The notes under the pieces were generated by a model. It was not told where the DNA came from and searched no databases. It worked only from the letters and a program-made list of their open reading frames with translations. The translations under genes and the position numbers were made by a program. A DNA stretch of 59,724 bases from Bacteroidia bacterium (GTDB lineage Bacteria; Bacteroidota; Bacteroidia; Bacteroidales; VadinHA17): NCBI GenBank assembly GCA_026391515.1, contig JAPLEC010000457.1, positions 1 to 59,724 on the forward strand, written 5' to 3'. Below are positions 8,094 to 46,195 of this stretch, piece by piece. How positions within the stretch are numbered: the first letter of the stretch is position 1; each line of letters opens with the position of its first letter.

Positions 8094-8125
8094 CCGGCTA
8101 CCGGCAACCGGTTACCGGTTACCGG
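8094..8125. repeat. five CCGG tetramers at exact 7-nt spacing (CCGGnnn)x5
   Basis: CCGG occurs at 8094, 8101, 8108, 8115 and 8122. The array fills the 28-nt gap between convergent genes and runs over the kinase stop codon at 8119..8121. It is self-complementary in several registers. Confidence 0.85.
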
Positions 8126-32450: not shown

Positions 32451-33287
32451 TTAATACGGAGTGAGAAAAATTTGTTCCGGCATTTCAGGAATTATATCCT
32501 TCTCTCCTGCTATTCTGAAAAGTTCAGAGATGGCTTTCTTACCCTCTTTGCCCAGATTTAATGTGTATTTATTGACAAAGAGCTTGATATGATTATTCAT
32601 TACCGTACTATCCATTTCCTTTGCGTTGGAAGTGACAAAATCGTATGATGCGATTGAATCGTGATAAGCAAATTCCAGGCTTCTGCGGATAATACGGTTT
32701 ACTTTTAGTGCTATATCATTCCCGATCCTCCTGTTTATTACGATCATACCCAGAGGTATTGGAAGATTTGTAAGCTTATGCCAGTATTCACCCAAATCAG
32801 CAATTTTCTGAAGTCCCTTTTTATGGTATGTGAAACGCGTTTCATGGATTATCAGTCCTGCGTCGACTTCATCTTTCAGTATCGCATCTACGATATCGGA
32901 AAAAAGATATTCTGTTTTATTATTTGCTCCTGGCCATGCAATACTTAAAAGGAGGTTTGCAGTAGTATAATTACCCGGAATGGCTATTCTGGAAGAGATC
33001 AATTCTGATTCGTAAATTTTGCGCTTGCTGATCAGGAGCGGCCCGTTCCTGTGACCAAGTGCGCTTCCTGAATCGAGGATAAGATAATTCCTGGCAGTAA
33101 AAGCGTATGCAAAACAGCTTATTTTGGTGATATCAAGCTTACCTGAAAAAGCCCTATGGTTAAGTTCCTCGACATCAGACAGAAGATAATCAAATTCCAA
33201 TCCCTCAGTATCAATTCTCCCATGCACCATAGCATCAAAAATAAATGTATCGTTTGGGCAGGGTGAGAAACCAAGTGTCAGTTTCAT
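32451..33287 (-). CDS. mqnD: 1,4-dihydroxy-6-naphthoate synthase (futalosine pathway)
   Basis: 278 aa. N-terminus LGFSPCPNDTFIFDAMVHGRIDTEGL, characteristic of MqnD. Adjacent to mqnB. Confidence 0.8.
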   Translation of the reverse strand: MKLTLGFSPCPNDTFIFDAMVHGRIDTEGLEFDYLLSDVEELNHRAFSGKLDITKISCFAYAFTARNYLILDSGSALGHRNGPLLISKRKIYESELISSRIAIPGNYTTANLLLSIAWPGANNKTEYLFSDIVDAILKDEVDAGLIIHETRFTYHKKGLQKIADLGEYWHKLTNLPIPLGMIVINRRIGNDIALKVNRIIRRSLEFAYHDSIASYDFVTSNAKEMDSTVMNNHIKLFVNKYTLNLGKEGKKAISELFRIAGEKDIIPEMPEQIFLTPY

Positions 33288-33290
33288 TTT

Positions 33291-33968
33291 TCAATCAAGA
33301 GTTAAAAAAAACTCAATCAGCTTTTCTGAAAGATTATTAAGAGCGACCTGAATATTCCATTTGTTTTTATCGCGAGGTTCCACTCTGTTTGAGATTGACC
33401 TAATTGCCAGGAAAGGTATTTTTTCTCCGCTGCAAATATAAAAAAAAGTTGCTCCCTCCATAGTTTCAATATCGGGATTATATTTGCTCCTTAGTCGTTC
33501 AATAGTGGAAGCAGAACCGGAAGAGGTATTGACAGTAACAGCATTGACTTGTTTTAATTTACTGATTATCTGTGTATTAAATGTTGTATCTGCCAGAATT
33601 TTCCCGTCTTTAAAAGGAAACTGGTTTGGATCCTGAATACCAGCTTCAGAAAGAGTGAGAAAGCTGTTGCCTTTCTCCACACCTGAATCGGCAAAACAAT
33701 CAGAAACGGGAACGACTACATCTCCGATGACAATGTCTTCCTTATAACTGCCTGCAATGCCTATATTCATAGCAAGATCAGGCCAGGGATTAGCAGAGAG
33801 CCATTTCATCAAAGACCATGATGTTGCAACAGAACCGACGCCTGTTATTAAAAGGCTTATTTCATTATTCCCAAGAATGTATCCATCACGGGATAGTTTT
33901 ATTCCGGGAATTTTTCTGAAAGCATCGGCCTCAGATTCAGTGGCAACGACTAATAAAATTCTTTTCAA
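33291..33968 (-). CDS. mqnB: futalosine hydrolase
   Basis: 225 aa. PNP/UDP-phosphorylase-like fold (LLVVATESEA...GVGSVA...METMEGA-like). Sits next to mqnD. Confidence 0.7.
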   Translation of the reverse strand: MKRILLVVATESEADAFRKIPGIKLSRDGYILGNNEISLLITGVGSVATSWSLMKWLSANPWPDLAMNIGIAGSYKEDIVIGDVVVPVSDCFADSGVEKGNSFLTLSEAGIQDPNQFPFKDGKILADTTFNTQIISKLKQVNAVTVNTSSGSASTIERLRSKYNPDIETMEGATFFYICSGEKIPFLAIRSISNRVEPRDKNKWNIQVALNNLSEKLIEFFLTLD

Positions 33969-34086
33969 CTTTTTTTCTTAATGCCCACTATTCTTACTGA
34001 AGGGTAGCCAATTCTCAAATATATTGCTTTTCAGACTTAAAAAGACAAACTTTATTGGTAATATTGTATTATAAACGCACTGTGAA

Positions 34087-34497
34087 ATGATCTATCTTAC
34101 ACGTCGAGAAAGATTCAGTGCTGCTCACAGGATGTTCAGGCAGGACTGGTCTGATGAAAAGAACCGGGAGGTTTTCGGGAAATGTTCGAATCCAAACTGG
34201 CATGGACATAATTATATCCTTTGGATTACTGTTAAGGGAGAACCATCTGAAGACCATGGATTTGTAATGAATATCAACCTTCTCAAAAAAATTGTTCAGG
34301 AAAAAATAATTGACAAGCTCGACCACAGGAACATAAATCTGGATGTTGACTTTATGAAAGGCAGGATTGCAACAACCGAAAATCTTGCAGTGGCTATCTG
34401 GGAGGAGCTTAAGAATGCAATTGAAAATGAGGGCGCTTGCCTCCATTGTATTAAAATTGAAGAAACTGAAAACAATTTGATAGAATATTATGGCTAA
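34087..34497 (+). CDS. queD: 6-carboxytetrahydropterin synthase / 6-pyruvoyl-tetrahydropterin synthase
   Basis: 136 aa. FSAAHRM...[11 protein letters not shown]...DHRNIN motifs. Confidence 0.85.
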
Positions 34498-35137
34498 GAC
34501 TATTGAAAAAATTAATGATGGTTCAGGAATGACCGATGAAGGGTACAATAAAATAGAGACCTGGAATGCAGAAACCATCGAAGAAATGGCAAAGATGTAT
34601 AAAAGGGTTCTCGAGCTCATAGGCGAAGATCCAAAGAGAGAAGGACTTGTACGAACCCCTGTCAGGGTTGCTAAAGCCATCAATTACCTGACCGTAGGTT
34701 ATAACATGAATCCGCATGAGATCCTTAAAGCAGCGATGTTCAAGGAAGAGTACAGGCAGATGGTTATTGTTAAGGATATTGACCTTTATTCGATGTGCGA
34801 ACATCACATGTTGCCTTTTTTCGGCAAAGCTCATGTCGCATATATTCCTGACGGGTATATTACCGGACTGAGCAAAATAGCACGTGTTGTTGAAGCTTAT
34901 TCAAGGAGGCTGCAGGTACAGGAGCGTCTGACAACACAAATAAGGAATTGTATTCAGGATACTCTTAAACCACTTGGAGTAGCAGTTGTTATTGAAGCTC
35001 AGCATATGTGCATGCAGATCAGAGGAGTACAGAAACAAAACTCAGTTACAACAACATCAGCATTTACCGGAATATTTCTTGAACATCTTAACACCCGCGA
35101 AGAGTTTATTCATCTGATCGGATCGAGGTTGCATTGA
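34490..35137 (+). CDS. folE: GTP cyclohydrolase I
   Basis: 215 aa. [21 protein letters not shown] ... RLQVQERLT ... EAQHMCM. Confidence 0.92.
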
Positions 35138-36574: not shown

Positions 36575-36604
36575 TTAATTAAGTGTATCTTTAGTTTAAT
36601 CAGT

Positions 36605-36726
36605 TACTTACCCACCCCTACCTCCCGCTTCTCCGCCGGTTGGCGGATTCGCGGGACAAGCTCTCCCAGGAGGGGATCCTGAGGGTTTTTACCTTTGTGC
36701 CTTTGTACCGTTTCACCTTTACACCG
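36605..36726. repeat. GC-rich nested hairpin plus CCTTTGTG-family repeat downstream of the 990-aa gene
   Basis: TCCCGC (36623..36628) pairs with GCGGGA (36651..36656), enclosing CCGCC-ggtt-GGCGG (36633..36646). CCTTTGTGCCTTTGTACCGTT at 36692..36712 matches 13873..13893. Confidence 0.7.
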
Positions 36727-39699
36727 TTATACGGGTTTCATTATTGCTCCTTTATGACGTTTCCCGTCGACCATAATCTCGAGAGGTTTTTCAAACCGGA
36801 TATGCCTTATGTAGTCGTCTTCGTAAACTGTATTAAGTCCATTAAGATAATTAACATCATAACAACCTTCATTGATATAAGGATTTATAGTGAAATATCC
36901 GACCCGGAACGATGTAAGATTCTGGAAGAAATGCGTTCCCTGGCTTGGATCAATCCTGTAATTTTTCAGTCCTGATTCAATGATTATTCTTGCAGCTGAT
37001 ATCTGCGGCCATTTTACAGGGATTCCAAGCCATGGATCTGTAGATCCCCATCTGCCAGGACCAACCAGCACATATCCGATTCCCTGTTTTACAAATGAAG
37101 CGTTTAAATTCTCAATAATAGCAGCAACGTTTTTATTCAGTGCAGCATTAAAGGATTCCGGTTTTATATAAACCATATCATGAATTCCTTTAAATAATCC
37201 ATTACCCAGAGCTGATTCAGAAAATATGATTGTATCCTCGCGTTTAACATTTTCAAGGTTTATGCTATAAGTCTCGTCTGAATATACTATTGGCCTGATT
37301 TGCAGGAAGTTGAATATCTTTGGTGTACCTGCTGGTGTCTCAAGGTTTGCTGCAAATTCAATTTCTATAGGATTGTTCATTTCTCTTTGGCCAAGCTCAA
37401 GAAGGGTGGACAGGATTTCAGCAAGCGGGAATGATTTGTGCTGTAAAATATTTGAAAAAGTTATAACTCTCTTACCCTGAGAGGTTATTCCATCGCGAAG
37501 AATATTATTTGTATGGTCGTATGTTGAAGCCAGATATTTCATTGCACCATCGTTATTTGCATCTTTTATATCTATCCTGAGTATATTGACTCCATCGTCG
37601 GTAGAAGGTACAAAACTGTCGATATTGAGATCAAGGGCCCGGAATTCCTTTTGAGAGTCACGAATGGCCAGCTCGGGAGACGAAAGCTGAAGGATTTTTT
37701 TGGGAATTTTTGGACAGAATCTCAGTGACATTCCTCCCTCGACGATCAATTTGCCAAGACCAAATGCAACATTTACAATTCCATCTTCTGCCTTTTCGGA
37801 ACCAATCGGGTAATAATTTATCGACCTGGCCACCCCTGAAAGAGTCGGATAGAAAATATCTCCATGTCTGTTTCCACAAACTTCCTGCAGAACTATTCCC
37901 ATCTTTTCCTCATCAATCACGTTTGAAGTAGCAGTCATATAAGCCTTGCTGGCTTTATAGTAAACCGAAGCATAAACCTCTTTAATGGCATCGGATAATA
38001 CCGTAACCATTTGCTTGTTATCAGGCAGCCTGGGGATCATATATGTTGAATAGACTCCTGCAAATGGCTGATAATGTGAATCTTCCAGCTTACTTGAAGA
38101 TCGTACAGCTAAAGGATGATTTCGGGAAACGGCCAGATAAGCATAGAAATCCTGGTATACACGTCCGGGAAGCTCCGCATTGATGAACCTGTTAAGAATC
38201 TCATCGTCGGAGAGGTCTGACAGAGCAACAGCATAAAGGTTGTTATGGTCCATGAACTCATCAAAGATGTCGGTACTCAACACAACGGTTCGTGGAATTG
38301 TAATAAGAACATCAGGGAACTTATTAAACAGTTTGTTGTTCTTTATAATCCTGTTAATAAATGCAAGTCCCCTTGCTTTTCCTCCGATAGACCCTTCCCC
38401 TATCCTTGAAAAGATCTGGTATTCATCAAAACTTGACTTATCGAACTTCGCAATCACTCCTCTTCCTTTTCCCAACCGGAAGCTTGAAATAGCGACATAT
38501 AGAAATCTTCTCATCTCGTCCATTGTCTCAAAATCTTCCTTCCTGATGTATTTAAACATTTGGGCTACAGGGAATAAAGCTCTCGCATTCAGCCATTTTG
38601 AGAAGTGATTTCGGGTGGCATGATATTCAAGAGTGTTATCGGGGATAGTGAGCAGCTTTTGCTGAAGACTCTGAAGATCAGTGGCTATGGCTATTGGTTC
38701 AAGAGTATCAGGATTTCTGAAAACAAATGGTCCGAAAGCAAGGTTTTGTATTATAAAATTCCGCAGCTCAAGAGATAACGATTTGGAATACTTATGAATA
38801 AATCCTGCACCAATCTCCTCAGCTTTCTTTTTATGCTCAATATTCGATGATTGAAGCAGGAATGGAACCTTATCATCATCGGCCATCACTACCTTGCATA
38901 ATTCGAGCCCTGCATTTTCATCCGGAACATTATCTCTTTTATAGCTGATATCGGAGATCACCCCAAGGACATTGTACTTATATTTTTTGTACAAAGCTTC
39001 TGCATCATTGAAATTATTGGCAAGTAATATTTTCGGTCTTCCCCTCATTTTAAGCATCCTCTGGTGCTCATTAAGCGCTTCACGTTGAAAATCAAGCGAT
39101 TGTAGCAGTACAATCCTGTAAATATTCGGAAGGTAAGATGAAATATATCTGATTGAGTTTTCAACAAGGATGATTGCCTGAACACCAATATTCTCTATAT
39201 CATGATCAGCATTCATCTTATCTTCAATCAGCTTTATTATTGCCAGTATCAGTGCGGCATCACCCAGCCAGCAGAAGACATAATCAATAGCGCTGAGATC
39301 TTCTCCTTCAAGCCTGAAGGAGACTTCGCGTGAAAAATATGTAAGAACAACAATCGGAATGCTGGGATATTTGGCTTTTATCCTTTTTGCGAGGGCAAAT
39401 ACATCTATACCTTTAAGGCTCAGCATTGAAATTACCAGGTCAACATTTCCCTCCTGGAGAATCTTAAAGGCATCTTCTGCATTGTCTGTCTGAACAAATG
39501 TCGGTGGATATCTAAGGTTAAGTGAAACGTATTCGTTGAAAATCTGCTCATCAATCCTGCCATCTTCTTCAAGCATGTAATTATCATAATTACTGCATAT
39601 TACGAGTACCCGATGTATTCGTTTCTGCATAAGAAGGTCGAATGATGTATCGGTAAAATCATATTTCTGCAGATCAAGTATTCCTTCAATGATGGTCAT
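36727..39699 (-). CDS. receiver-like domains fused to a PEP/pyruvate-binding (PPDK_N ATP-grasp) domain and a conserved C-terminal module, function unknown
   Basis: 990 aa. DLVISM degenerate receiver. Second receiver-like domain ILVENS...GVISDISY...LLQSS...FIHK. ATP-grasp motifs GGKARGLAFIN and VRSSSKLEDSHYQPFAG. C-terminal LVGPGRWGSTDPWLGIPVKWPQIS...GTHFFQNLTS...RHIRFEKPL. Confidence 0.7.
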   Translation of the reverse strand: MTIIEGILDLQKYDFTDTSFDLLMQKRIHRVLVICSNYDNYMLEEDGRIDEQIFNEYVSLNLRYPPTFVQTDNAEDAFKILQEGNVDLVISMLSLKGIDVFALAKRIKAKYPSIPIVVLTYFSREVSFRLEGEDLSAIDYVFCWLGDAALILAIIKLIEDKMNADHDIENIGVQAIILVENSIRYISSYLPNIYRIVLLQSLDFQREALNEHQRMLKMRGRPKILLANNFNDAEALYKKYKYNVLGVISDISYKRDNVPDENAGLELCKVVMADDDKVPFLLQSSNIEHKKKAEEIGAGFIHKYSKSLSLELRNFIIQNLAFGPFVFRNPDTLEPIAIATDLQSLQQKLLTIPDNTLEYHATRNHFSKWLNARALFPVAQMFKYIRKEDFETMDEMRRFLYVAISSFRLGKGRGVIAKFDKSSFDEYQIFSRIGEGSIGGKARGLAFINRIIKNNKLFNKFPDVLITIPRTVVLSTDIFDEFMDHNNLYAVALSDLSDDEILNRFINAELPGRVYQDFYAYLAVSRNHPLAVRSSSKLEDSHYQPFAGVYSTYMIPRLPDNKQMVTVLSDAIKEVYASVYYKASKAYMTATSNVIDEEKMGIVLQEVCGNRHGDIFYPTLSGVARSINYYPIGSEKAEDGIVNVAFGLGKLIVEGGMSLRFCPKIPKKILQLSSPELAIRDSQKEFRALDLNIDSFVPSTDDGVNILRIDIKDANNDGAMKYLASTYDHTNNILRDGITSQGKRVITFSNILQHKSFPLAEILSTLLELGQREMNNPIEIEFAANLETPAGTPKIFNFLQIRPIVYSDETYSINLENVKREDTIIFSESALGNGLFKGIHDMVYIKPESFNAALNKNVAAIIENLNASFVKQGIGYVLVGPGRWGSTDPWLGIPVKWPQISAARIIIESGLKNYRIDPSQGTHFFQNLTSFRVGYFTINPYINEGCYDVNYLNGLNTVYEDDYIRHIRFEKPLEIMVDGKRHKGAIMKPV

Positions 39700-39710
39700 A
39701 CAGTGAAAAA

Positions 39711-42700
39711 TTAATGATTTATTGTGATAACAGCAATTCCTTTTTTCCCGTCCATTCTGACGAGAAGGGGTTTTTCGAACCGGATATGCCGGAAGTATTT
39801 ACCATTTTCAATTACCTGCTGCTCATTAAGCCTGTCCCAGTTTATTTTTCCGTTATGGGCTCCCTGGTTAATTGAAAAGTATCCTACATTCATTGATGTG
39901 ACATTGTGAAAAAAGTGGGATCCGAGTGATGCATCGAGGTGAAAATCAGGGAGATCGACTTCTACAATAACTTTTGCATTTGATATTTGCGGCCAGACTA
40001 CCGGTATGCCAAGAAACCTATCTTTTGTTCCCCATCTTCCGGGACCTACCAGGATATAACGAAGGTTGGCTTTCAGCATCTTTTCGTTAATCATGTCGAT
40101 CTCTTCAGCTATTTGCGTGGTACGTAAATTATCAAATTTATCAGGTTCAATATAAATTAAATCTGAAATATCATCGATCACTCCGTTTCCCATGCTTGTA
40201 ATAGATTCAAGGATCAGATCTTCATTATTAATACTCTCAGGATCAATATTATATCCTGCTCCGGTTCCTACCAGCGGTTTTATCTGAAGAAGATAAAAAG
40301 AGGCGTTCCCATCTTTATCTTTATTCAGATCGATCGCAAATTCAATTTCTGACGGGTTTCCTGTAGCTTCAGCTACAACATCAAGTATGGTCTTGAGTGT
40401 TGGCGCAAGCGGGATATAATTATATTTGAGAATATCAGTAAAATTTATTACACGGGGTCCAGGAGTATCGAGCCCGGGCACAATTGTATCATTATCTGTA
40501 TTCAATACTGATGCTGAGTGATTCAATGTTCCATGTTCTTCAGCTTTCGCAATATCCAGGGTTATAAGACCTGCATTTTCACCATCCAGCAGGTTTAAAT
40601 CTTTTTTTGTCATATCGACAGCATAGAAATAAACCTGGGAATTCTTATACAGATCATTTTGAGAAATAATATCCAGAGACGGGTATGACGGTGAAAATCT
40701 GAAAGCTCTTTCTCCTTCGACCACATAATGACCTAATCCTACAGCCATAACTGCAAAGCCATCTTCAGGCGTCATGTGAGCCACCGGATAAAAATTAAAT
40801 GACTGGGCAGTTCCGCTTATATGCGGATAGAATGCATCATTAAACCTGTTACCGACCACCTCCTGGATTACAACAGCCATTTTTTCGAGTTCGATTTTAT
40901 AATTGATTGCTTCAAAATATGTTCGTGAACTCCTTGAATATATTGAAGCAAAAACAAGCTTTATGGCATTAGACAGCTGCCGCAGCCTGGTATCAAATTC
41001 GTTATGATTATTGGGAAGAAGATATGTCCCGAAAATGCCTGAGAAAGGCTGGCTCAATGAATCTTCAAATAAGCTTGATGATCTCACTGCAATAGGTTTC
41101 TCTATTTGTTTAAGTAGTATCCTCAGCTCTTTTTCCAGTGTGTAGCTTAGACTCCCTTCGAGAAAAAGTCTTTGAAGCGCATCAAAATCCTTTTCTTCTT
41201 TTACGCTGTTCCACAAATGATTACGTTCCATGAACATATCGAACTCATCTGTTCCTATTATGGCAGTTATTGGGGCTTTAATGTTTATTCCCGGTAAAAG
41301 CCTTCCAAGCTCAAAGCTGTATATCAATGTATTGATGAATGCAAGGCCTCTTCCTTTTCCGCCAAGCGAACCGCCTGACAGGCTCACAACGTTAGTCTCG
41401 TCAATTACTGCCGATTCTTCAAAATTGATAACTCTTCCTTTGTTTGTCTCGCGCCTGCGCTTACGGATTATATCGATAAGAAATTCCCTGAGCTCTTTAA
41501 GAGTGTTAAAATCAGATACCTTAATCGGGTTAATAAGCTTGGCAATTTTTACCTCACCTCTTGCCATCAGCCATAGTGAGAAATGATTCTTCATTGCATG
41601 GTACGCCAGAGAATCTTCAGGCACTGTCTCGAGATAAGCCTCGAATTCTTTCATTGATTTTGCTACTGCGATCTGGCGTCCCTTATTATCTCTGTAAACA
41701 AAATGTCCAAAACCCAGGTAATAGTTTATAAATGATTTCAGGTCCTGGAGAAGACTTTCAGAGTTTTTATTTATAAAATTTGACTTAAGTGCAAAGGCAT
41801 ATTTTGCATTTTCGGGGTCAGATGACTGAAGGACTGTGGGAAGATTCGGCAATTCTTCTTTTATCATCTGAATCAGCTCGAAGCCGGCGGTATCATTTAA
41901 TACGCCATTCCTCGGAAACCGCATATCAGATATGATACACAACAGGCTTTCTTTATACTTATTATATATAGTCACAGAATCCTCCCAGTTTGAGGCAAGT
42001 AAAATTTTTGGTCTTGCCCTGAGCTTCAGCACTTTATAAAGTTCGTCTGTAGAGACATCCTCAATAAGGCTTCTTGTTTGCTCCAGCACCAGCGTATATA
42101 GCATTGGCAGGTAGCTTGAATAGTATTCAGCAGAATCTTCCACAAGAAGAATTACCCTGGTAAGTCCTTTTTTGGTATCATTTTCGACATTTACCCTATC
42201 TTCGAGAAGCTTGACCATTGCAAAGAATACTTTGGATTCACCGGTCCAGACAAAATAATTATCGAATGGTACACCTGCTGCTTTCTGCTTTTTAACAAAA
42301 GGAACATCTCCAGGATTATTCAGAAGAATGAATGTCGGCAGGTAAGGATATTTATCCTTGATTTTTTTACAAAGTATCATCGGGCTCTCCTTATGGACAC
42401 CAATCATAATAATTACCATGTCGAAGTGTCTGGCTTTAAGCCTGTTAAAAGCTTCATCCTCGCTTGAAACACCGGTAACCCTCGGGAGAGAAGTCAGGCT
42501 AAGCTGATAATATTCACCTAGCATATGGTCTGAGAATCGTCCTTCACCCTCAATGGAATAGGCATCATAAAGGTTAGCCACCAGAAGTATCTCTTTAACT
42601 TTGAAGGGCTGTAAATCGTGAAAGACATCCCGTTCAGCATTATGACGCTCCAGAAATTTTTGCAACAGCTTTCTGCTTGATACTGTTTTTAAATCTTCCG

Positions 42701-43157
42701 GTTCTTCCTTCGGGACCTGGGCTAATCGTATTATATCGCGTGCCTTATAACTATTGATATAACCTGTTAAAAGACTTGCAATATTCTGGATCAGGTCCCA
42801 TTCCTCTTTTAAGAAAGGGCCTCCTTTTTCAACACTGAATTCTCTTGTATAAAATATTTCTATTGAACCCTTTTCATTGTCTATTGTGTTGAATTCCTGG
42901 ATCATTTTCCATGAAGTCTCCTGAAAATTAGGCGTTTCAAATGTTTTATCAAGGAATCTTATACGTGCTTCAGTATATTCAGGATATTGCCAGGCTGCCG
43001 GTAAAAGCAATACAACCTGCTGGAGTGTTTCCTCGATGGGCTTACCTTCCTTAAGAATATAGGTAGTCTGATTTATACAAGAAAGCTCCTTTACCCTTTC
43101 CTGCTGATCGTGAAGCAGCTTGTGGTATTCAGGTGTAATATGGTTCTTTTCATCCAT
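39711..43157 (-). CDS. paralogue of the downstream gene, with an extra N-terminal sensor-like module
   Basis: 1148 aa. Same domain order (DMVIIM; LLVEDS...CIISDMRF...VLQSS...FINK; GGKGRGLAFIN; VRSSSLFEDSLSQPFSG; LVGPGRWGTKDRFLGIPVVWPQIS...GSHFFHNVTS...RHIRFEKPL). Adds about 170 N-terminal aa (ELSCINQ...LLLPAAWQYPEYTEARIRF...). Confidence 0.7.
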   Translation of the reverse strand: MDEKNHITPEYHKLLHDQQERVKELSCINQTTYILKEGKPIEETLQQVVLLLPAAWQYPEYTEARIRFLDKTFETPNFQETSWKMIQEFNTIDNEKGSIEIFYTREFSVEKGGPFLKEEWDLIQNIASLLTGYINSYKARDIIRLAQVPKEEPEDLKTVSSRKLLQKFLERHNAERDVFHDLQPFKVKEILLVANLYDAYSIEGEGRFSDHMLGEYYQLSLTSLPRVTGVSSEDEAFNRLKARHFDMVIIMIGVHKESPMILCKKIKDKYPYLPTFILLNNPGDVPFVKKQKAAGVPFDNYFVWTGESKVFFAMVKLLEDRVNVENDTKKGLTRVILLVEDSAEYYSSYLPMLYTLVLEQTRSLIEDVSTDELYKVLKLRARPKILLASNWEDSVTIYNKYKESLLCIISDMRFPRNGVLNDTAGFELIQMIKEELPNLPTVLQSSDPENAKYAFALKSNFINKNSESLLQDLKSFINYYLGFGHFVYRDNKGRQIAVAKSMKEFEAYLETVPEDSLAYHAMKNHFSLWLMARGEVKIAKLINPIKVSDFNTLKELREFLIDIIRKRRRETNKGRVINFEESAVIDETNVVSLSGGSLGGKGRGLAFINTLIYSFELGRLLPGINIKAPITAIIGTDEFDMFMERNHLWNSVKEEKDFDALQRLFLEGSLSYTLEKELRILLKQIEKPIAVRSSSLFEDSLSQPFSGIFGTYLLPNNHNEFDTRLRQLSNAIKLVFASIYSRSSRTYFEAINYKIELEKMAVVIQEVVGNRFNDAFYPHISGTAQSFNFYPVAHMTPEDGFAVMAVGLGHYVVEGERAFRFSPSYPSLDIISQNDLYKNSQVYFYAVDMTKKDLNLLDGENAGLITLDIAKAEEHGTLNHSASVLNTDNDTIVPGLDTPGPRVINFTDILKYNYIPLAPTLKTILDVVAEATGNPSEIEFAIDLNKDKDGNASFYLLQIKPLVGTGAGYNIDPESINNEDLILESITSMGNGVIDDISDLIYIEPDKFDNLRTTQIAEEIDMINEKMLKANLRYILVGPGRWGTKDRFLGIPVVWPQISNAKVIVEVDLPDFHLDASLGSHFFHNVTSMNVGYFSINQGAHNGKINWDRLNEQQVIENGKYFRHIRFEKPLLVRMDGKKGIAVITINH

Positions 43158-43217
43158 GTGGCAGAAACCGGAGAAGATCAGGAGTTAAAATTAGTAAAAT
43201 TTCCGGTTTACTACGAT

Positions 43218-43303
43218 GGCGCCGATTTGCAATCGGTGCCAAAATAGTTTTATCAGTGGTACGGATTGCAACCAAGCAAAGGCACGGATTACAAATCCGC
43301 GCC
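43218..43303. repeat. MITE/REP-like element bounded by two 23-nt hairpin modules, copy 1
   Basis: GGCGCCGATTTGCAATCGGTGCC (43218..43240) and GGCACGGATTACAAATCCGCGCC (43281..43303). The block AAAGGCACGGATTAcAAATCCGCGCCAGCA (43278..43307) matches 56537..56566 at 29 of 30 positions. Confidence 0.8.
43273..43303 (-). terminator. intrinsic terminator candidate for korAB
   Basis: The minus strand reads GGCGCGGATTtgtAATCCGTGCC followed by TTTGCTTGG. It lies 24 nt downstream of the korB stop. Confidence 0.5.
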
Positions 43304-43326: not shown

Positions 43327-44349
43327 TTATTCCACTTTCCATATCGATCCGCTCAGCAGAAGATCATCCATACATTTAATCTTCGAATCCTTCTGAACTG
43401 ATTTAATCTGTTCCTGGACGTCAGCTTCATAGGTATTTCCTGCAACAGACCTTATAACTCCAAGAGCTACAGGGTATTCAGGATATCTCATATTCGCAAG
43501 CATATATTGAATTCCGGGATTCGGTTCTGATGCATCATGAACCAGCAGATTCTTTTCAGCAATCCCGTTCTCACCTATTGTGACAACTTTCAGTTTAAGT
43601 CCGTCGAGAACAAGACCCATATTATTTTCCTTCCCGAATTTCATTGGCTCACCATGTTTCAGGATAATGGTTCTGTCGTCTCTGACTTCTTTTCCTGTAA
43701 CAACATCATGGATCCCATCGTTAAAAATCACACAGTTCTGGAGAACTTCGACAACAGAAGTACCTTTATGTTTTGCTGCTTCAATATATATCTGGATTGA
43801 AAGAGCAATATTTGAGTCAACAGTACGGGCAAAGAATTTCCCTTTTGCACCAATTACCAGTTCGCCGACTGAAAAAGGTTCTTCAACTGTTCCGAAGGGT
43901 GATGTTTTTGTCACCAATCCTTTTCCCGATGTAGGGGAATACTGGCCTTTTGTCAGTCCGTATATCTCATTGTTAAACAATATTATATTAATATCTATAT
44001 TACGACGGATTGCATGAATGAAATGATTTCCGCCGATTGCAAGTGCATCGCCATCGCCGGTAATATCCCATACAGAAAGTTCCGGATTAGCGGTTTTAAC
44101 ACCTGAGGCAACCGCTGCTGCACGGCCATGAATTCCGTGGAAACCATAGGTATCCATATAATAAGGGAATCTCGATGAACAACCGATGCCTGATATAAAT
44201 GCAAATTTCTCCTTTGGTATTCCAAGCTCCGGCAGTGCTCTCTGGACAGCATTTAATACAGCATGATCGCCGCAGCCAGGGCACCATCTTACTTCCTGGT
44301 CGCTTTTAAAATCTTTCTGTGTGTACTGAATTGTTTGTTGTTCTGCCAT
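43327..44349 (-). CDS. korB: 2-oxoglutarate/2-oxoacid:ferredoxin oxidoreductase, beta subunit
   Basis: 340 aa. TPP-binding region WCPGCGDHAVL...GDGDALAIGGNH. Confidence 0.88.
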   Translation of the reverse strand: MAEQQTIQYTQKDFKSDQEVRWCPGCGDHAVLNAVQRALPELGIPKEKFAFISGIGCSSRFPYYMDTYGFHGIHGRAAAVASGVKTANPELSVWDITGDGDALAIGGNHFIHAIRRNIDINIILFNNEIYGLTKGQYSPTSGKGLVTKTSPFGTVEEPFSVGELVIGAKGKFFARTVDSNIALSIQIYIEAAKHKGTSVVEVLQNCVIFNDGIHDVVTGKEVRDDRTIILKHGEPMKFGKENNMGLVLDGLKLKVVTIGENGIAEKNLLVHDASEPNPGIQYMLANMRYPEYPVALGVIRSVAGNTYEADVQEQIKSVQKDSKIKCMDDLLLSGSIWKVE

Positions 44350-44350
44350 T

Positions 44351-46195
44351 TTATTTGCCCTCCAGAATTTTAATACATTTTTCTTTTATCTCTTTGATCG
44401 TGAATGGAAGTCCCTGGACTTTATTGACCTGTTCGTAGTTAAATTCCTGGTATTTCATACGCAGGTAATCGGCAAACTGACCAAGATTCAATTCAGCAAC
44501 AACAATTTTCTTGAATTTCCTGAAGACTTCATTTACATTTTTTGGAAAAGGATTTATATAGTTAAAATTAGCAAGGCTGACTTTATATCCTTCGGCCTGT
44601 AATTCACGGACGGCTGTCATCAGATATCCGCGTGAGCCGCCCCAGCCAACTAACAGCAGGTCGCCCGATTCTTCGCCATAAACTGTAAGGTCTGGAATTT
44701 TATCTGCAACTTTGGCTACTTTATCAGCCCTTAACTTTACCATCTGTTCGTGGTTCTCGGGGATGTAAGAAACAGTTCCTTTCAGAGTTTTTTCAAGTCC
44801 TCCTATCCTGTGCTCGAGTCCAGGTGTTCCAGGGATAGCCCATGACCTCACAAGTGTCTCACAATCACGGGCATATGGAAGAAAAGGAATCTTTGTCTTA
44901 TCAGCAAATGGAGGTTTTATTTCAGGCAGATCTTTCATTTTCGGGATTTTCCATGGTTCAGAACCATTGGCCAGATACCCGTCTGTTAGAAGCAGCACCG
45001 GCGTCATATGTTCCAGAGCAATCTTTGCAGCTTCATAAGCAAAGTGGAAACAGTCGGATGGGGTGCTTGCAGCTATTACCACAACAGGACATTCGCCACT
45101 CCTTCCATAAAGCGCCTGCATCAGGTCGGACTGTTCTGTCTTTGTGGGAAGGCCGGTAGAAGGGCCTCCTCTTTGAACATTAACTATAACTATTGGCAGC
45201 TCAGCCATGACTGCAAGTCCGATAGCTTCTGATTTCAGGGCAAGTCCCGGACCTGAAGTAGAGGTTACTGCCAGGTTTCCCGAGAAGCTGGCGCCCAGGG
45301 CGGTACAGATTCCGGCTATTTCATCTTCAGCCTGGAAGCTTTTAACACCCAGATCTTTACGTGCAGCCATCTCTTCAAGAATACCTGTTGCAGGTGTTAT
45401 AGGGTAAGATCCGATAAATAGCTTAAGACCAGCTTTCTCGGCGGCTGCCAATAATCCCCAGGCTGTTGCTATATTGCCACAGATGTTTCTGTAAGTACCC
45501 TTTGCTATCTGTGCCGGTTCAATTTTAATAACAGGGTTTAATGCCTCAATCGTCTCTGCATAATAATAACCTGCTCTTAAAGCAATTTTATTTGCTTCAG
45601 CTATTTCAGGTTTTTTAGCAAATTTCTTATCAAAATACTGTTCGGTATATTTTAGCCTTCTGTCGAAAAGCCAGTAAACCATTCCCAGAGCAAACATATT
45701 TTTTGTTCTCAGAATCGATTTTGGATCAAGACCTATGTCCTTCAGAGCTTCCTTAACCATTGAAGAAATTGGAGCTGCAATAACATTATAATTATCAAGC
45801 TTTTCTTCAACAACAGGATCGCTCTTATATCCTGCTTTCTCAATATTTTTATCCGTAAAATTATCTTTATCAAAAATTATTGTGCCTCCCGGTTTAACCC
45901 ATTTTACATTTGCTTTTACTGCTGCCGGATTCATAGCAACCAGTACATCAGAATAATCGCCGGGGGTATTGATCTCTGAATGTCCCAGATGGACCTGGAA
46001 ACCTGAAACACCGCCTACAGTACCTTGCGGAGCACGGATCTCTGCCGGATAATCAGGGAATGTTGACAGATCGTTACCGAACAATGCAGCAGTATCAGAA
46101 AAAAGTGTTCCTGTAAGCTGCATGCCATCGCCGGAATCGCCTGAAAAACGGATAACTACTTCTTCTCTTTCAATAACCTGTGAATTTTTCGCCAT
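44351..46195 (-). CDS. korA: 2-oxoglutarate/2-oxoacid:ferredoxin oxidoreductase, alpha subunit
   Basis: 614 aa. Fused gamma/alpha-type arrangement, GSYPITPAT and GPGLALK motifs. korB starts 2 nt after its stop. Confidence 0.88.
   Translation of the reverse strand: MAKNSQVIEREEVVIRFSGDSGDGMQLTGTLFSDTAALFGNDLSTFPDYPAEIRAPQGTVGGVSGFQVHLGHSEINTPGDYSDVLVAMNPAAVKANVKWVKPGGTIIFDKDNFTDKNIEKAGYKSDPVVEEKLDNYNVIAAPISSMVKEALKDIGLDPKSILRTKNMFALGMVYWLFDRRLKYTEQYFDKKFAKKPEIAEANKIALRAGYYYAETIEALNPVIKIEPAQIAKGTYRNICGNIATAWGLLAAAEKAGLKLFIGSYPITPATGILEEMAARKDLGVKSFQAEDEIAGICTALGASFSGNLAVTSTSGPGLALKSEAIGLAVMAELPIVIVNVQRGGPSTGLPTKTEQSDLMQALYGRSGECPVVVIAASTPSDCFHFAYEAAKIALEHMTPVLLLTDGYLANGSEPWKIPKMKDLPEIKPPFADKTKIPFLPYARDCETLVRSWAIPGTPGLEHRIGGLEKTLKGTVSYIPENHEQMVKLRADKVAKVADKIPDLTVYGEESGDLLLVGWGGSRGYLMTAVRELQAEGYKVSLANFNYINPFPKNVNEVFRKFKKIVVAELNLGQFADYLRMKYQEFNYEQVNKVQGLPFTIKEIKEKCIKILEGK

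Follow-up and report, generated by a model that had tools for sequence, protein, structure and literature searches.

Tandem receiver/ATP-grasp proteins of a Bacteroidia bacterium and their genomic linkage to glutamate dehydrogenase

The proteins encoded by two adjacent genes, A and B, probably control glutamate dehydrogenase (GDH), an enzyme of nitrogen assimilation, to judge from gene order among their relatives; this linkage to GDH is new here. The genes lie in the window, the 59,724-nucleotide stretch of DNA that was analysed. Both proteins join two receiver domains to an ATP-grasp domain of the pyruvate phosphate dikinase (PPDK) type and end in a new domain. They are not phosphoenolpyruvate (PEP) synthases, and that name, given to them in databases, is wrong, since they have neither the PEP-utilizers swivel domain nor the PEP barrel. 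Our belief is evenly divided over a fuller proposal, that A and B are the two subunits, or paralogous versions, of a regulatory enzyme that uses ATP under two-component control and belongs to the 2-oxoglutarate/glutamate node.

Domain organisation of A and B

A sequence-only reading of the window had described two codirectional genes for proteins of 990 and 1148 amino acids with one domain order. Both open reading frames were found, on the minus strand, with A beginning 11 nt (39700-39710) after B, so that the two genes probably form a single operon. The proteins are 36% identical across 976 residues (E = 0) and have this order in common: an aspartate-less receiver, a canonical receiver, a DUF5752-like linker, a PPDK_N ATP-grasp domain and an unannotated C-terminal domain of about 170 amino acids. 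B has in addition a sensor-like domain ahead of the pseudo-receiver.

36727-39699, minus strand: gene A, 990 aa
36730-37233, minus strand: A C-terminal domain, aa 823-990; no Pfam family, no PDB fold match
37270-38391, minus strand: A PPDK_N ATP-grasp domain, aa 437-810 (Pfam E 7e-35)
38410-38742, minus strand: A DUF5752-like linker, beta-hairpin plus helical, aa 320-430
38782-39183, minus strand: A second receiver, aa 173-306
39259-39618, minus strand: A pseudo-receiver, aa 28-147 (Pfam Response_reg, alignment to FleR)
39711-43157, minus strand: gene B, 1148 aa
39714-40220, minus strand: B C-terminal GPGRWG / G-S-H-F-F domain, aa 980-1148
40260-41369, minus strand: B PPDK_N ATP-grasp domain, aa 597-966 (Pfam E 1.5e-34)
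41388-41720, minus strand: B DUF5752-like linker (Pfam match aa 499-573)
41757-42161, minus strand: B second receiver, about aa 333-467
42237-42599, minus strand: B pseudo-receiver, about aa 187-307
42663-43157, minus strand: B sensor-like domain, residues 1-165, AWQYPE motif (tblastn in relatives)

All of the motifs quoted in that reading were located in the proteins: DLVISM (A87) and DMVIIM (B246) in the first receiver; LVENS (A178), LVEDS (B338) and ISD (A248, B409) in the second; GGKARGLAFIN (A439) and GGKGRGLAFIN (B599) in the ATP-grasp domain; LVGPGRWG (A878, B1036) in the C-terminal module; and RPKILLA, LLQSS/VLQSS, VRSSS, LGIPV, WPQIS, HFF and RHIRFEKPL. The AlphaFold model is of high confidence (pLDDT 93.9, pTM 0.92).

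The first receiver, noted earlier for a methionine in place of the acceptor aspartate, is a pseudo-receiver throughout the family. Pfam Response_reg matches A69-142 (E 2e-10), and alignment to FleR sets Met92 of A (codon 39424-39426) opposite the FleR acceptor Asp; the corresponding residue of B is Met251 (codon 42405-42407). Across 111 relatives this position is Met, Thr, Phe or Val, and Asp in none. The second receiver, by contrast, keeps the quintet E180, D181, D250, S284 and K303 across the family. A itself has Asn at 181, together with E180, D250 (codon 38950-38952), S284 and K303, and B has LVEDS, ISD with D411 (codon 41925-41927), VLQSS and FINK; D250, S284 and K303 are retained by at least 90% of 111 members (32-52% identity to A).

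The receiver-like regions are of the CheY fold, and the model matches the tandem receivers of PleD in Foldseek (E 5e-7, over about 360-420 aligned columns). As in PleD, tandem CheY-fold domains, one without its acceptor Asp, precede an enzymatic output. In A and B, however, the pseudo-receiver comes first, with an ATP-grasp unit as the output in place of GGDEF; the first helix of the true receiver is lengthened, as seen in A, and Pfam matches this domain only weakly (E 6e-4 to 0.06), its receiver model giving marginal recognition (E 0.03-0.06).

The linker of B (499-573) scores 33.4 bits to DUF5752 when scanned alone, the gathering cut-off being 23. Residues 1-165 of B are unannotated, have no counterpart in A and gave no match in Pfam and PDB sequence searches. 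By tblastn this domain is present in all B-type orthologues, and some relatives repeat it two to four times in tandem; it also lies within the linker where A and B are fused, and a PAS-GerE regulator adjoining gdh contains it.

The ATP-grasp and C-terminal domains

The ATP-grasp domain is homologous to those of rifampin phosphotransferase (RPH), PEP synthase and PPDK, as the sequence-only reading proposed: besides the PPDK_N matches in both proteins, Foldseek finds RPH (5hv1, E 2e-12) and PPDK (5lu4, E 7e-5), with a TM score of 0.60 to the isolated RPH ATP domain. G439, G440, K441, R533, S534, S535, E539, D540 and Q800 are invariant among the family members aligned, and E779, E781 and R802 are found in no fewer than 90% of 111 members (32-52% identity to A). 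We take K441, R533, E779, E781, Q800 and R802 to be the PPDK catalytic Mg and phosphate ligands, and the conserved GGK, VRSSS..ED, ExEF and LQxRP motifs to correspond to the nucleotide, Mg and phosphate ligands of PPDK/PpsA. Unlike the dikinases, A and B have no swivelling phosphohistidine domain, PEP/pyruvate barrel or rifampin-binding domain; in their place are the two N-terminal receivers, the DUF5752-like linker and a C-terminal domain with GPGRWG and G[ST]HFF. The absence of a GGxTSHAA phosphohistidine motif and of a PEP-utilizer barrel had been noticed already and holds: a motif scan found no G-G-x-T-S-H-type motif in A or B, Pfam matched neither PEP-utilizers, with its canonical swivel His, nor PEP-utilizers_C in either protein, and it found no swivel domain or PEP barrel in 49/49 diverse relatives.

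The C-terminal domain carries GPGRWGS-x-D and S-Q-G-T-H923-F-F in A (His codon 36931-36933), and the family motif S-x-G-[ST]-H-F-F holds a near-invariant His (A H923; B H1081, codon 39915-39917) that 109 of 111 diverse relatives share. G882, R883, E908 and H923 are each kept in at least 90% of 111 members (32-52% identity to A). The earlier reading quoted GxHFFxNxTS and passed over the conservation of its His.

That reading also suggested that the LVGPGRWG..LGIPV module may be a degenerate swivel. In its full form the proposal makes A and B true dikinases with a very divergent swivel, the C-terminal module being remotely homologous to the mobile PEP-utilizers domain, in which His923, (pyro)phosphorylated by the ATP-grasp domain, carries phosphate to a substrate bound elsewhere. 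To our knowledge every characterised PPDK_N-type ATP-grasp enzyme operates through a swivel phospho-His domain, which favours this reading. By inspection, the near-invariant His follows a Ser/Thr and opens a helix that comes straight after a strand and loop, an arrangement reminiscent of the helix-capping T-S-H in PPDK, PpsA and enzyme I, and the secondary-structure elements run in a broadly similar order. The best local path that hhalign gave with a 3-sequence profile put QGSHFF on RTCHAAI, but the match to the PEP-utilizers profile had a probability of 1.4%, and a better 12-sequence template lowered this to 0.4%. Other searches with the module were also negative: Pfam gave no PF00391 match at E <= 10 in 74 C-terminal sequences or at E <= 0.01 in 49 full-length members, the PDB profile search found nothing, and Foldseek with the C-terminal model (pLDDT 88.9) gave a best E of 0.1 and TM <= 0.32, with no PPDK, PpsA, EI or RPH chain among the 50 matches listed. 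We therefore regard a divergent dikinase as unlikely. With the swivel phospho-His domain absent, the phosphotransfer chemistry of A and B stays putative, and His923 is possibly catalytic.

Genomic linkage and proposed function

In the window the pair lies between an oxidoreductase and an OsmC-like gene, the latter confirmed downstream.

36575-36726, minus strand: 152-nt spacer between A and the OsmC gene
43217-43303, minus strand: pair of similar G+C-rich hairpins in the interval from the oxidoreductase beta gene to B
43327-46195, minus strand: 2-oxoacid:acceptor (ferredoxin) oxidoreductase, upstream (NCBIfam models)
43327-44349, minus strand: oxidoreductase beta subunit
44351-46195, minus strand: oxidoreductase alpha subunit

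The upstream genes, previously read as korAB, do encode alpha and beta subunits, although NCBIfam assigns them to the generic 2-oxoacid:acceptor type and not to a 2-oxoglutarate-specific one; this synteny is kept in 13 of 80 relatives' loci. The hairpins resemble terminators and suggest that B and A are transcribed separately from the oxidoreductase. The hybrid histidine kinase at 8119-10881 is indeed the sole kinase core in the window, where no kinase adjoins A or B.

We surveyed 80 GTDB species loci for full-length GDH within 8 kb and found it in 29, immediately adjacent in 24; about 60% of the loci had none in that range, many of these being cut by contig ends. The tandem B-A arrangement occurs in 15 of the 80. 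The order is gdh, family gene, gdh in Lutibacter and Polaribacter (L032, L035, L052), and in Phocaeicola gdh and the family gene are divergently arranged. When divergent members were looked up in metagenomes, GDH neighboured the family gene in 8/8 informative cases (L081, L082, L083, L084, L085, L104, L105/106, L107/108), with gaps as small as 8 nt; in L085 gaps of 8 nt and 2 nt give an operon-tight spacing to gdh. A different subfamily (31-35% identical) accounts for some of these GDHs, and the adjacency spans very divergent lineages and architectures. It is because relatives nearly always adjoin gdh that we consider A and B probable controllers of GDH. In L054, L009 and L017 gdh lies directly downstream of A, in L054 in the order kinase, B, A, gdh, OsmC. 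The window contains no gdh, nor any remnant of one in the 152-nt spacer; its clade has the oxidoreductase upstream and has lost the gdh found downstream of A in relatives. The choice of substrate, previously called unknown, can be narrowed by strong genomic linkage to GDH.

Relatives also vary the partnership. An A-like core is fused to a B-like unit, B N-terminal domain included, in P0368 and P0385, and in L104 and L105 the B-like partner has a canonical pol-beta nucleotidyltransferase domain (NTP_transf_2, E 4e-10; GS...DID motif), a hint of a modifying enzyme.

In the mechanism that we propose, an unlinked histidine kinase would phosphorylate the second receiver (D250 in A, D411 in B), the pseudo-receiver would act, like its PleD counterpart, as adaptor or dimerisation module, and the extra domain of B would bind a metabolite signal. 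Together these would turn on the ATP-grasp/C-terminal catalytic unit, which would transfer a phosphoryl (or pyrophosphoryl) group from ATP, possibly via His923/His1081, most likely to GDH itself or to a partner that sets its activity. GDH is possibly the protein modified, although this does not follow from gene linkage, as genes co-regulated by nitrogen status would be linked in just this way. Were the mechanism to operate, glutamate synthesis would be matched to nitrogen and carbon supply.

The ATP-grasp domain might instead sense energy charge simply by binding ATP, ADP or AMP, with GDH or another partner regulated by direct binding gated by receiver phosphorylation. The very compact model with its single predicted conformation (pTM 0.92), the lack of a phospho-carrier domain recognisable by Pfam, Foldseek, PDB profile or hhalign, and a pseudo-receiver and extra sensor domain typical of signalling scaffolds all suit such a non-catalytic role. 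We think it improbable, given that the presumed Mg and phosphate ligands are invariant or nearly so, that the C-terminal domain has near-invariant polar residues of its own (R883, E908, H923), and that the nucleotidyltransferase added in relatives, with intact GS/DxD motifs, points to chemistry and not just binding. Less probable still is a metabolic enzyme whose substrate is a small molecule from the 2-oxoglutarate/glutamate node, such as a 2-oxoacid or amino acid phosphorylated or ligated at the expense of ATP, with receivers that do no more than tune flux. The genes do lie between the oxidoreductase and, in relatives, gdh, two enzymes able to make glutamate from succinyl-CoA, the spacing to gdh in L085 is tight, and carboxylate activation is common among ATP-grasp enzymes; yet the domain here is of the PPDK_N and not the carboxylate-amine ligase subclass, two receivers, a sensor domain and a relative's nucleotidyltransferase are hallmarks of a regulator, and we know of no missing ATP-dependent step in glutamate synthesis. 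Ordinary PEP synthases, as the source records name them, are refuted by the domain content of A, B and relatives and by the missing TSH motif, the NCBIfam PpsA matches being partial, confined to the ATP-grasp part and worth 20-53 bits against cut-offs of 500-1350, so that this identity is next to impossible.

The architecture has been catalogued before and its function has not: Galperin et al. 2018 (PMC5847659) list 'REC + pyruvate phosphate dikinase' of Bacteroides, and Maule et al. 2015 (PMC4395418) list aspartate-less receivers whose effector domain is PPDK. A and B have the domain combination of both censuses, aspartate-less receiver included; the available parts of the two papers list the combination only, with no function, C-terminal domain, second receiver or GDH linkage.

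Among better-known systems, the regulatory enzyme that we favour finds its nearest parallels in function. Large multidomain enzymes covalently control ammonium assimilation according to 2-oxoglutarate or glutamine: GlnE and GlnD are nucleotidyltransferases that regulate glutamine synthetase and PII, and in PtsP (EI-Ntr) a sensor domain is attached to a phosphotransfer enzyme of the PEP-utilising family. The analogy is functional only, as no sequence or fold relationship to A or B was found; the nucleotidyltransferase is absent from A and B themselves, B relatives carry one of the pol-beta type, and the linked enzyme is GDH rather than glutamine synthetase.

Linkage of relatives of A and B to glutamate dehydrogenase

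The two genes that we call A and B are separated by 11 nt, and their products are 36% identical over 976 residues. Both minus-strand open reading frames, together with every motif quoted from them in the sequence-only reading, were found where they were expected.

36727-39699, minus strand: A, 990 aa
39711-43157, minus strand: B, 1148 aa

Residue numbers follow A unless B is named, L-numbers denote genomic loci of relatives and P-numbers relative proteins. By the family we mean A, B and their relatives. When ORFs were called and neighbours clustered in 80 species loci, the only widely recurrent neighbour was a ~445-aa family-I glutamate dehydrogenase (GDH). A full-length GDH was detected by tblastn within 8 kb in 29 of the 80 loci, a lower bound given that many loci end at contig ends, and in 24 it adjoins the family gene directly by position. 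The placement of gdh varies: it lies directly downstream on the same strand, divergently upstream, or on both flanks, as in Lutibacter and Polaribacter (L032, L035, L052). Compared with the L009 enzyme, the two paralogues that flank the family gene on its own strand in those three loci are ~61% and 71% identical. The Phocaeicola family gene, represented by 1446 blocks in the collection, stands divergently to one gdh, and a maeB-gdh block is a few genes distant. At L039, L042 and L044, all of them Bacteroides loci, no gdh adjoins the family gene.

Nine loci of atypical or distant representatives were looked up; eight were informative and all eight had a GDH neighbour.

Gene order at loci of atypical or distant relatives
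L081: GDH, 54 nt, 1639-aa receiver-less fusion
L082: GDH, 1523-aa fusion
L083: gdh-then-family-member operon, divergent from a 1557-aa member
L084: family gene, GDH
L085: GDH, 8 nt, A-type, 2 nt, B-type
L104: GDH, A-type, second PPDK_N protein
L105/106: GDH, GDH, A-type, second PPDK_N protein, third family member
L107/108: family gene, peptidase, GDH, SBP-PAS histidine kinase, receiver

Several GDHs of these divergent loci belong to another subfamily, 31-35% identical to the Bacteroidota enzyme; the gdh linkage survives large changes in both partners. The histidine kinase that directly follows gdh at L107 (12519-15099) and L108 (6925-9505), and precedes a receiver protein, carries SBP_bac_3 and PAS domains. 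SBP_bac_3 is usually a solute- or amino-acid-binding domain, and in this lineage the kinase may provide the cognate sensory signal.

Among close relatives of the window's genes gdh lies directly 3' of A, in the order kinase-B-A-gdh-OsmC-fabD at L054, whose GDH scores above the NCBIfam GDH cut-offs, and B-A-gdh at L009 and L017. Downstream of A in the window are OsmC and then convergent fabD, folE and queD; tblastn found no gdh remnant in the A-OsmC spacer and no gdh anywhere in the 59.7-kb window. The sequence-only reading named the OsmC neighbour correctly and also placed genes for a 2-oxoacid:acceptor oxidoreductase (alpha and beta) upstream of B, where they do lie, but the models leave the 2-oxoglutarate specificity that it gave them unestablished. 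An oxidoreductase occupies this directly upstream position in 13 of the 80 loci, in the window's clade. From this upstream oxidoreductase and the gdh that follows A in relatives, we infer a probable ancestral cluster, oxidoreductase-B-A-gdh, from which gdh has been lost in the window. Anaerobic Bacteroidota reductively carboxylate succinyl-CoA to 2-oxoglutarate, which is then converted to glutamate by GDH; if that route holds here, the A/B pair would sit between its two enzymes.

36575-36726: spacer between A and OsmC, 152 nt, G+C-rich
43217-43241 and 43281-43303: two similar G+C-rich inverted repeats, stems 10-11 bp, loops 3 nt

The oxidoreductase beta gene and B are 169 nt apart, and both repeats fall in this interval. 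They may represent tandem terminators or else a small repeated element, and the presence of two G+C-rich hairpins at this point suggests that B-A is probably a bicistronic unit of its own. Further downstream of the A/B locus are two minus-strand genes identified by Pfam matches that look, from those matches, like futalosine-pathway menaquinone genes; past them, on the plus strand, are genes for 6-pyruvoyl-tetrahydropterin synthase and GTP cyclohydrolase I (whole stretch 32451-35137).

32451-33287, minus strand: VitK2_biosynth gene
33291-33968, minus strand: PNP_UDP_1 phosphorylase-family gene

Domain architecture of A and B

The receiver-like regions do have the CheY fold that the sequence-only reading gave them. 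An AlphaFold2 model of A, made from the alignment of 111 full-length relatives (32-52% identical to A) that we also used for residue conservation, is compact (pLDDT 93.9, pTM 0.92), and Foldseek against the PDB matched its N-terminal half to the tandem receivers of PleD (E 5e-7), to CheB and to 3luf. Pfam places Response_reg at A69-142, and the acceptor position of this first receiver is Met92 in A and Met251 in B. Across the 111 members the position is Met in 62, Thr in 15, Phe in 7, Val in 6 and Asp in 0; judged by its sequence, the first receiver is an aspartate-less pseudo-receiver throughout the family. The second receiver is only weakly matched by Response_reg (E 6e-4 to 0.06); it shows the (beta-alpha)5 pattern in the model at A173-306. 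Here E180 is present in 107 of the 111, D181 in 95, D250 in 101, S284 in 103 and K303 in 106; A itself carries Asn at 181, and B has E, D, D411, S and K. The long helix that links the receivers (A148-171, window 39187-39258) contains an invariant E159 and near-invariant D160, N163 and D167. DUF5752 (PF19027) is matched at B499-573 with 25.9-33.4 bits and in A with 13.5 bits, against a gathering cut-off of 23; matches at E <= 0.01 occur in 22 of 49 relatives, the alignment spanning just profile positions 20-108 of 208. In this DUF5752-like linker the Trp W369, part of NHFSxWL, is invariant.

No kinase adjoins A/B in the window, and the sole histidine-kinase core is that of the hybrid kinase at 8119-10881, as the first inspection had it, 26 kb away. 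This minus-strand gene encodes a PAS-GAF hybrid histidine kinase. Kinases adjoin the family gene in some relatives (L039, L042, L054, L107); those of ~1300 aa in some Bacteroides/Bacteroidales loci are 27-36% identical to the window's hybrid kinase.

L039 3958-7863: ~1300-aa kinase
L042 3925-7857: ~1300-aa kinase
L054, first ORF: ~1300-aa kinase

The ATP-grasp domain, PF01326 (PPDK_N), was matched at A437-810 (E 7e-35) and B597-966 (E 1.5e-34). Invariant or nearly so are G439-G440-K441, R533-S-S, E539-D540, E779-x-E781, Q800 and R802 (Lys in B), residues that we take to bind nucleotide, Mg and phosphate in PPDK and PpsA. Foldseek matched the domain to rifampin phosphotransferase (RPH; 5hv1, E 2e-12) and PPDK (5lu4, E 7e-5), with a TM of 0.60 on the isolated ATP domain 5hv6. 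The chains stop ~180 aa past this domain. Pfam detected neither the swivelling phosphohistidine domain (PF00391, PEP-utilizers) nor the PEP/pyruvate TIM barrel (PF02896) in A, B or 49 relatives, and a motif of the G-G-x-T-S-H-A-A type was absent from A and B; among these 49 diverse members PPDK_N was counted 49 times, Response_reg 42, DUF5752 22 and PEP-utilizers 0. A canonical PEP synthase, PPDK or RPH is ruled out because swivel domain and barrel are both missing. NCBIfam models for PpsA, PigC, RedH and RPH scored 20-53 bits against cut-offs of 500-1350 and covered only ~190 ATP-grasp residues; the best equivalog score was 52.7 bits against a cut-off of 883. The core of the earlier view holds: these are ATP-grasp proteins under signal control and not PEP synthases.

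The C-terminal 170 residues carry the motifs L-[IV]-G-P-G-R-W-G-[ST]-x-D-x-x-L-G-I-P-V-x-W and P-S-Q-G-[ST]-H-F-F-x-N. G882, R883, G892, E908 and H923 vary little or not at all; H923 is present in 109 of 111 sequences, a conservation that makes His923 a candidate catalytic or phospho-carrier residue. The suggestion that this module is a degenerate swivel domain found no support in any of four comparisons. No Pfam family covers it, fragments of relatives having no precomputed domain, and at E <= 10 the PPDK_N tail was the only recurrent Pfam match among 74 C-terminal sequences. A profile search of PDB sequences with the module returned nothing. A separate model of residues 806-990 (pLDDT 88.9, pTM 0.87) gave no fold match by Foldseek against the PDB (best E 0.1, TM at most 0.32), and no PPDK, PpsA, enzyme I (EI) or RPH chain was among the 50 matches listed. 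In hhalign against PEP-utilizers the probability was 1.4% with a small profile, whose templates came from E. coli PpsA, PtsI and PtsP, and 0.4% with a better one to which nine diverse plasmid-borne PpsA, PPDK, RPH, EI and stand-alone domains had been added. Searching with the module alone recovered mostly short fragments of the same family and no new architectures.

Some likeness to a swivel domain persists, all of it without statistical support: an [ST]-His caps the N-terminus of a helix that follows a strand and loop, the order of secondary-structure elements in the model looks alike, and one hhalign path paired the two His residues. It is on such likeness, and on the PPDK-type ATP-grasp domain, that a highly divergent true dikinase would have to be argued, against the negative searches for swivel domain and barrel. 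A non-catalytic scaffold that senses nucleotide would likewise use the ATP-grasp fold; its ligand residues and H923 are nonetheless conserved across the family. The GPGRWGSxD motif and the nucleotidyltransferase domains of some relatives had suggested that the C-terminal module might be a pol-beta nucleotidyltransferase. This was rejected: no nucleotidyltransferase was among the Foldseek matches listed for it, and in relatives that domain follows the GRWG/GTHFF domain as an extra.

Partnership of A and B and the accessory domains of relatives

B and A occur in tandem in 15 of the 80 loci. The fused proteins P0368 and P0385 consist of an A-like core followed by a complete B-like unit, with GGK, RSS..ED, LQxRP, GPGRWG and G[ST]HFF kept in both units, and these A+B fusions argue that the A-like and B-like units work together. 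B begins with an unannotated domain with an AWQYPE motif, for which no Pfam or PDB sequence match was found.

42663-43157, minus strand: B residues 1-165, AWQYPE-motif domain

By tblastn this domain is present in every B-type orthologue. It is repeated in tandem, twice at L022 and four times in P0317, it opens the third gene of the L085 operon, and it also occurs in the linker between both ATP-grasp/C-terminal units of P0368 and P0385, and inside a PAS-GerE transcription regulator adjoining gdh at L081. Its probable role is ligand sensing, in connection with gdh loci.

Positions of the AWQYPE-motif domain in relatives
L083 7050-8720
L081 5697-6152 and 9780-10145
L082 3134-3508
L085 4469-4867

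The B-like partner at L104 and L105 has an extra C-terminal NTP_transf_2 domain (pol-beta type, E 4e-10) with its GS...DID intact, and P0368 retains a degenerate nucleotidyltransferase copy. NTP_transf_2 is absent from A and B and was seen only in B-like partners of distant relatives. GlnE and GlnD modify glutamine synthetase and PII with a domain of this pol-beta nucleotidyltransferase type.

Second PPDK_N proteins with a pol-beta nucleotidyltransferase, in gdh operons
L104 4579-7728
L105 9409-12654
L106 5315-8560

A possible role in glutamate dehydrogenase control

Taken together, the gdh coupling, the A/B partnership, the new domains and the relatives with a nucleotidyltransferase suggest that a central nitrogen-assimilation enzyme is under a form of control not recognised before. 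In the mechanism that we propose, an unlinked kinase would phosphorylate D250 of A and D411 of B, the pseudo-receiver would act as an adaptor by analogy with PleD, and the N-terminal domain of B would bind a metabolite. These inputs would control whether the ATP-grasp/C-terminal unit transfers a phosphoryl or pyrophosphoryl group from ATP, possibly via His923, to GDH or a GDH-controlling partner. We would give even chances to A and B being catalytic regulators of the glutamate node; that GDH is itself covalently modified seems rather unlikely. Equally tentative is the wider proposal that the family is the catalytic core of an unrecognised post-translational GDH control system, in which the swivel has been replaced by a new His-bearing domain and which is driven by receivers and sensors and, in some members, carries a nucleotidyltransferase. 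Such a system would be a counterpart of the GlnE/GlnD control of glutamine synthetase. The gdh linkage would also suit a small-molecule enzyme of the glutamate node, a rival to the regulator that we favour and one that would have to accommodate the receivers and sensor domains as well. An anti-phage defence system was rejected, there being no PADLOC family match for A or B at E <= 1.

Bacteroidota, which are dominant in the human and ruminant gut, lean heavily on GDH for ammonium assimilation, and to our knowledge its post-translational control in this phylum is not understood. Yamamoto et al., in 1987, reportedly saw B. fragilis GDH reversibly inactivated in vivo. Baggio and Morrison, in 1996, are said to have found that B. 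thetaiotaomicron GdhA was active in E. coli only when given a ~3-kb region downstream of gdhA, and that a trans-acting locus was required for its activity. The proposed GDH control system, if real, could account for these reports. BT1969 encodes a malic enzyme and BT1971 a catalase. The maeB-gdh block that lies a few genes from the family gene in Phocaeicola is the same as that of B. thetaiotaomicron, which makes it possible that a family gene is the trans-acting factor downstream of B. thetaiotaomicron gdhA. The Bacteroides loci without an adjoining gdh (L039, L042, L044) speak against this.

If true, the control system would be widespread in Bacteroidota, including the dominant human-gut Phocaeicola and Prevotella, and in other phyla. 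If the family regulates or modifies GDH, a gap in the circuitry of nitrogen control would be closed, a PPDK-type ATP-grasp domain would be seen to operate without a swivel domain, and a new protein domain, DUF5752 and an unannotated sensor domain would each gain a function. The MAG proteins closest to A carry the names 'phosphoenolpyruvate synthase', 'PEP/pyruvate-binding domain-containing protein', 'response regulator' or 'CheY-like'. The family, physically tied to gdh across phyla, is systematically given the wrong name "PEP synthase". Should the GDH link turn out to be no more than co-regulation, metabolic reconstructions of Bacteroidota from gut and sediment would still gain from a corrected annotation.

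The bare architecture was known before. The combination of REC and PPDK is listed in the domain census of Galperin et al. (PMC5847659), and PPDK effector domains appear among those enriched for aspartate-less receivers in the census of Maule et al. 2015 (PMC4395418); a full-text literature search found no functional study of the family, only these two censuses listing the architecture. What is new is the cross-phylum gdh coupling, the A/B partnership drawn from fusions, the uncharacterised C- and N-terminal domains and the relatives that bear nucleotidyltransferases.

This is a large and highly conserved family: close relatives from many metagenome-assembled genomes (MAGs) are 87-92% identical. 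Word matches connect A with more than 8000 clusters at 90% identity, the best 120 of them being Bacteroidales or Bacteroidia MAG proteins 87-100% identical to A. An exhaustive HMMER scan of 1.84 billion representatives gave 1187 clusters (50% identity) below E 1e-30; the best 150 are mostly full-length proteins of ~1000 aa, and the remainder are either fragments below that length or fusions above it. When a single genome from each GTDB species was scanned, at least 598 loci were confirmed, and among those listed are cultured Bacteroides, Lutibacter and Gillisia as well as MAGs assigned to Prevotella, Alistipes, Tannerella, Parabacteroides and Phocaeicola.
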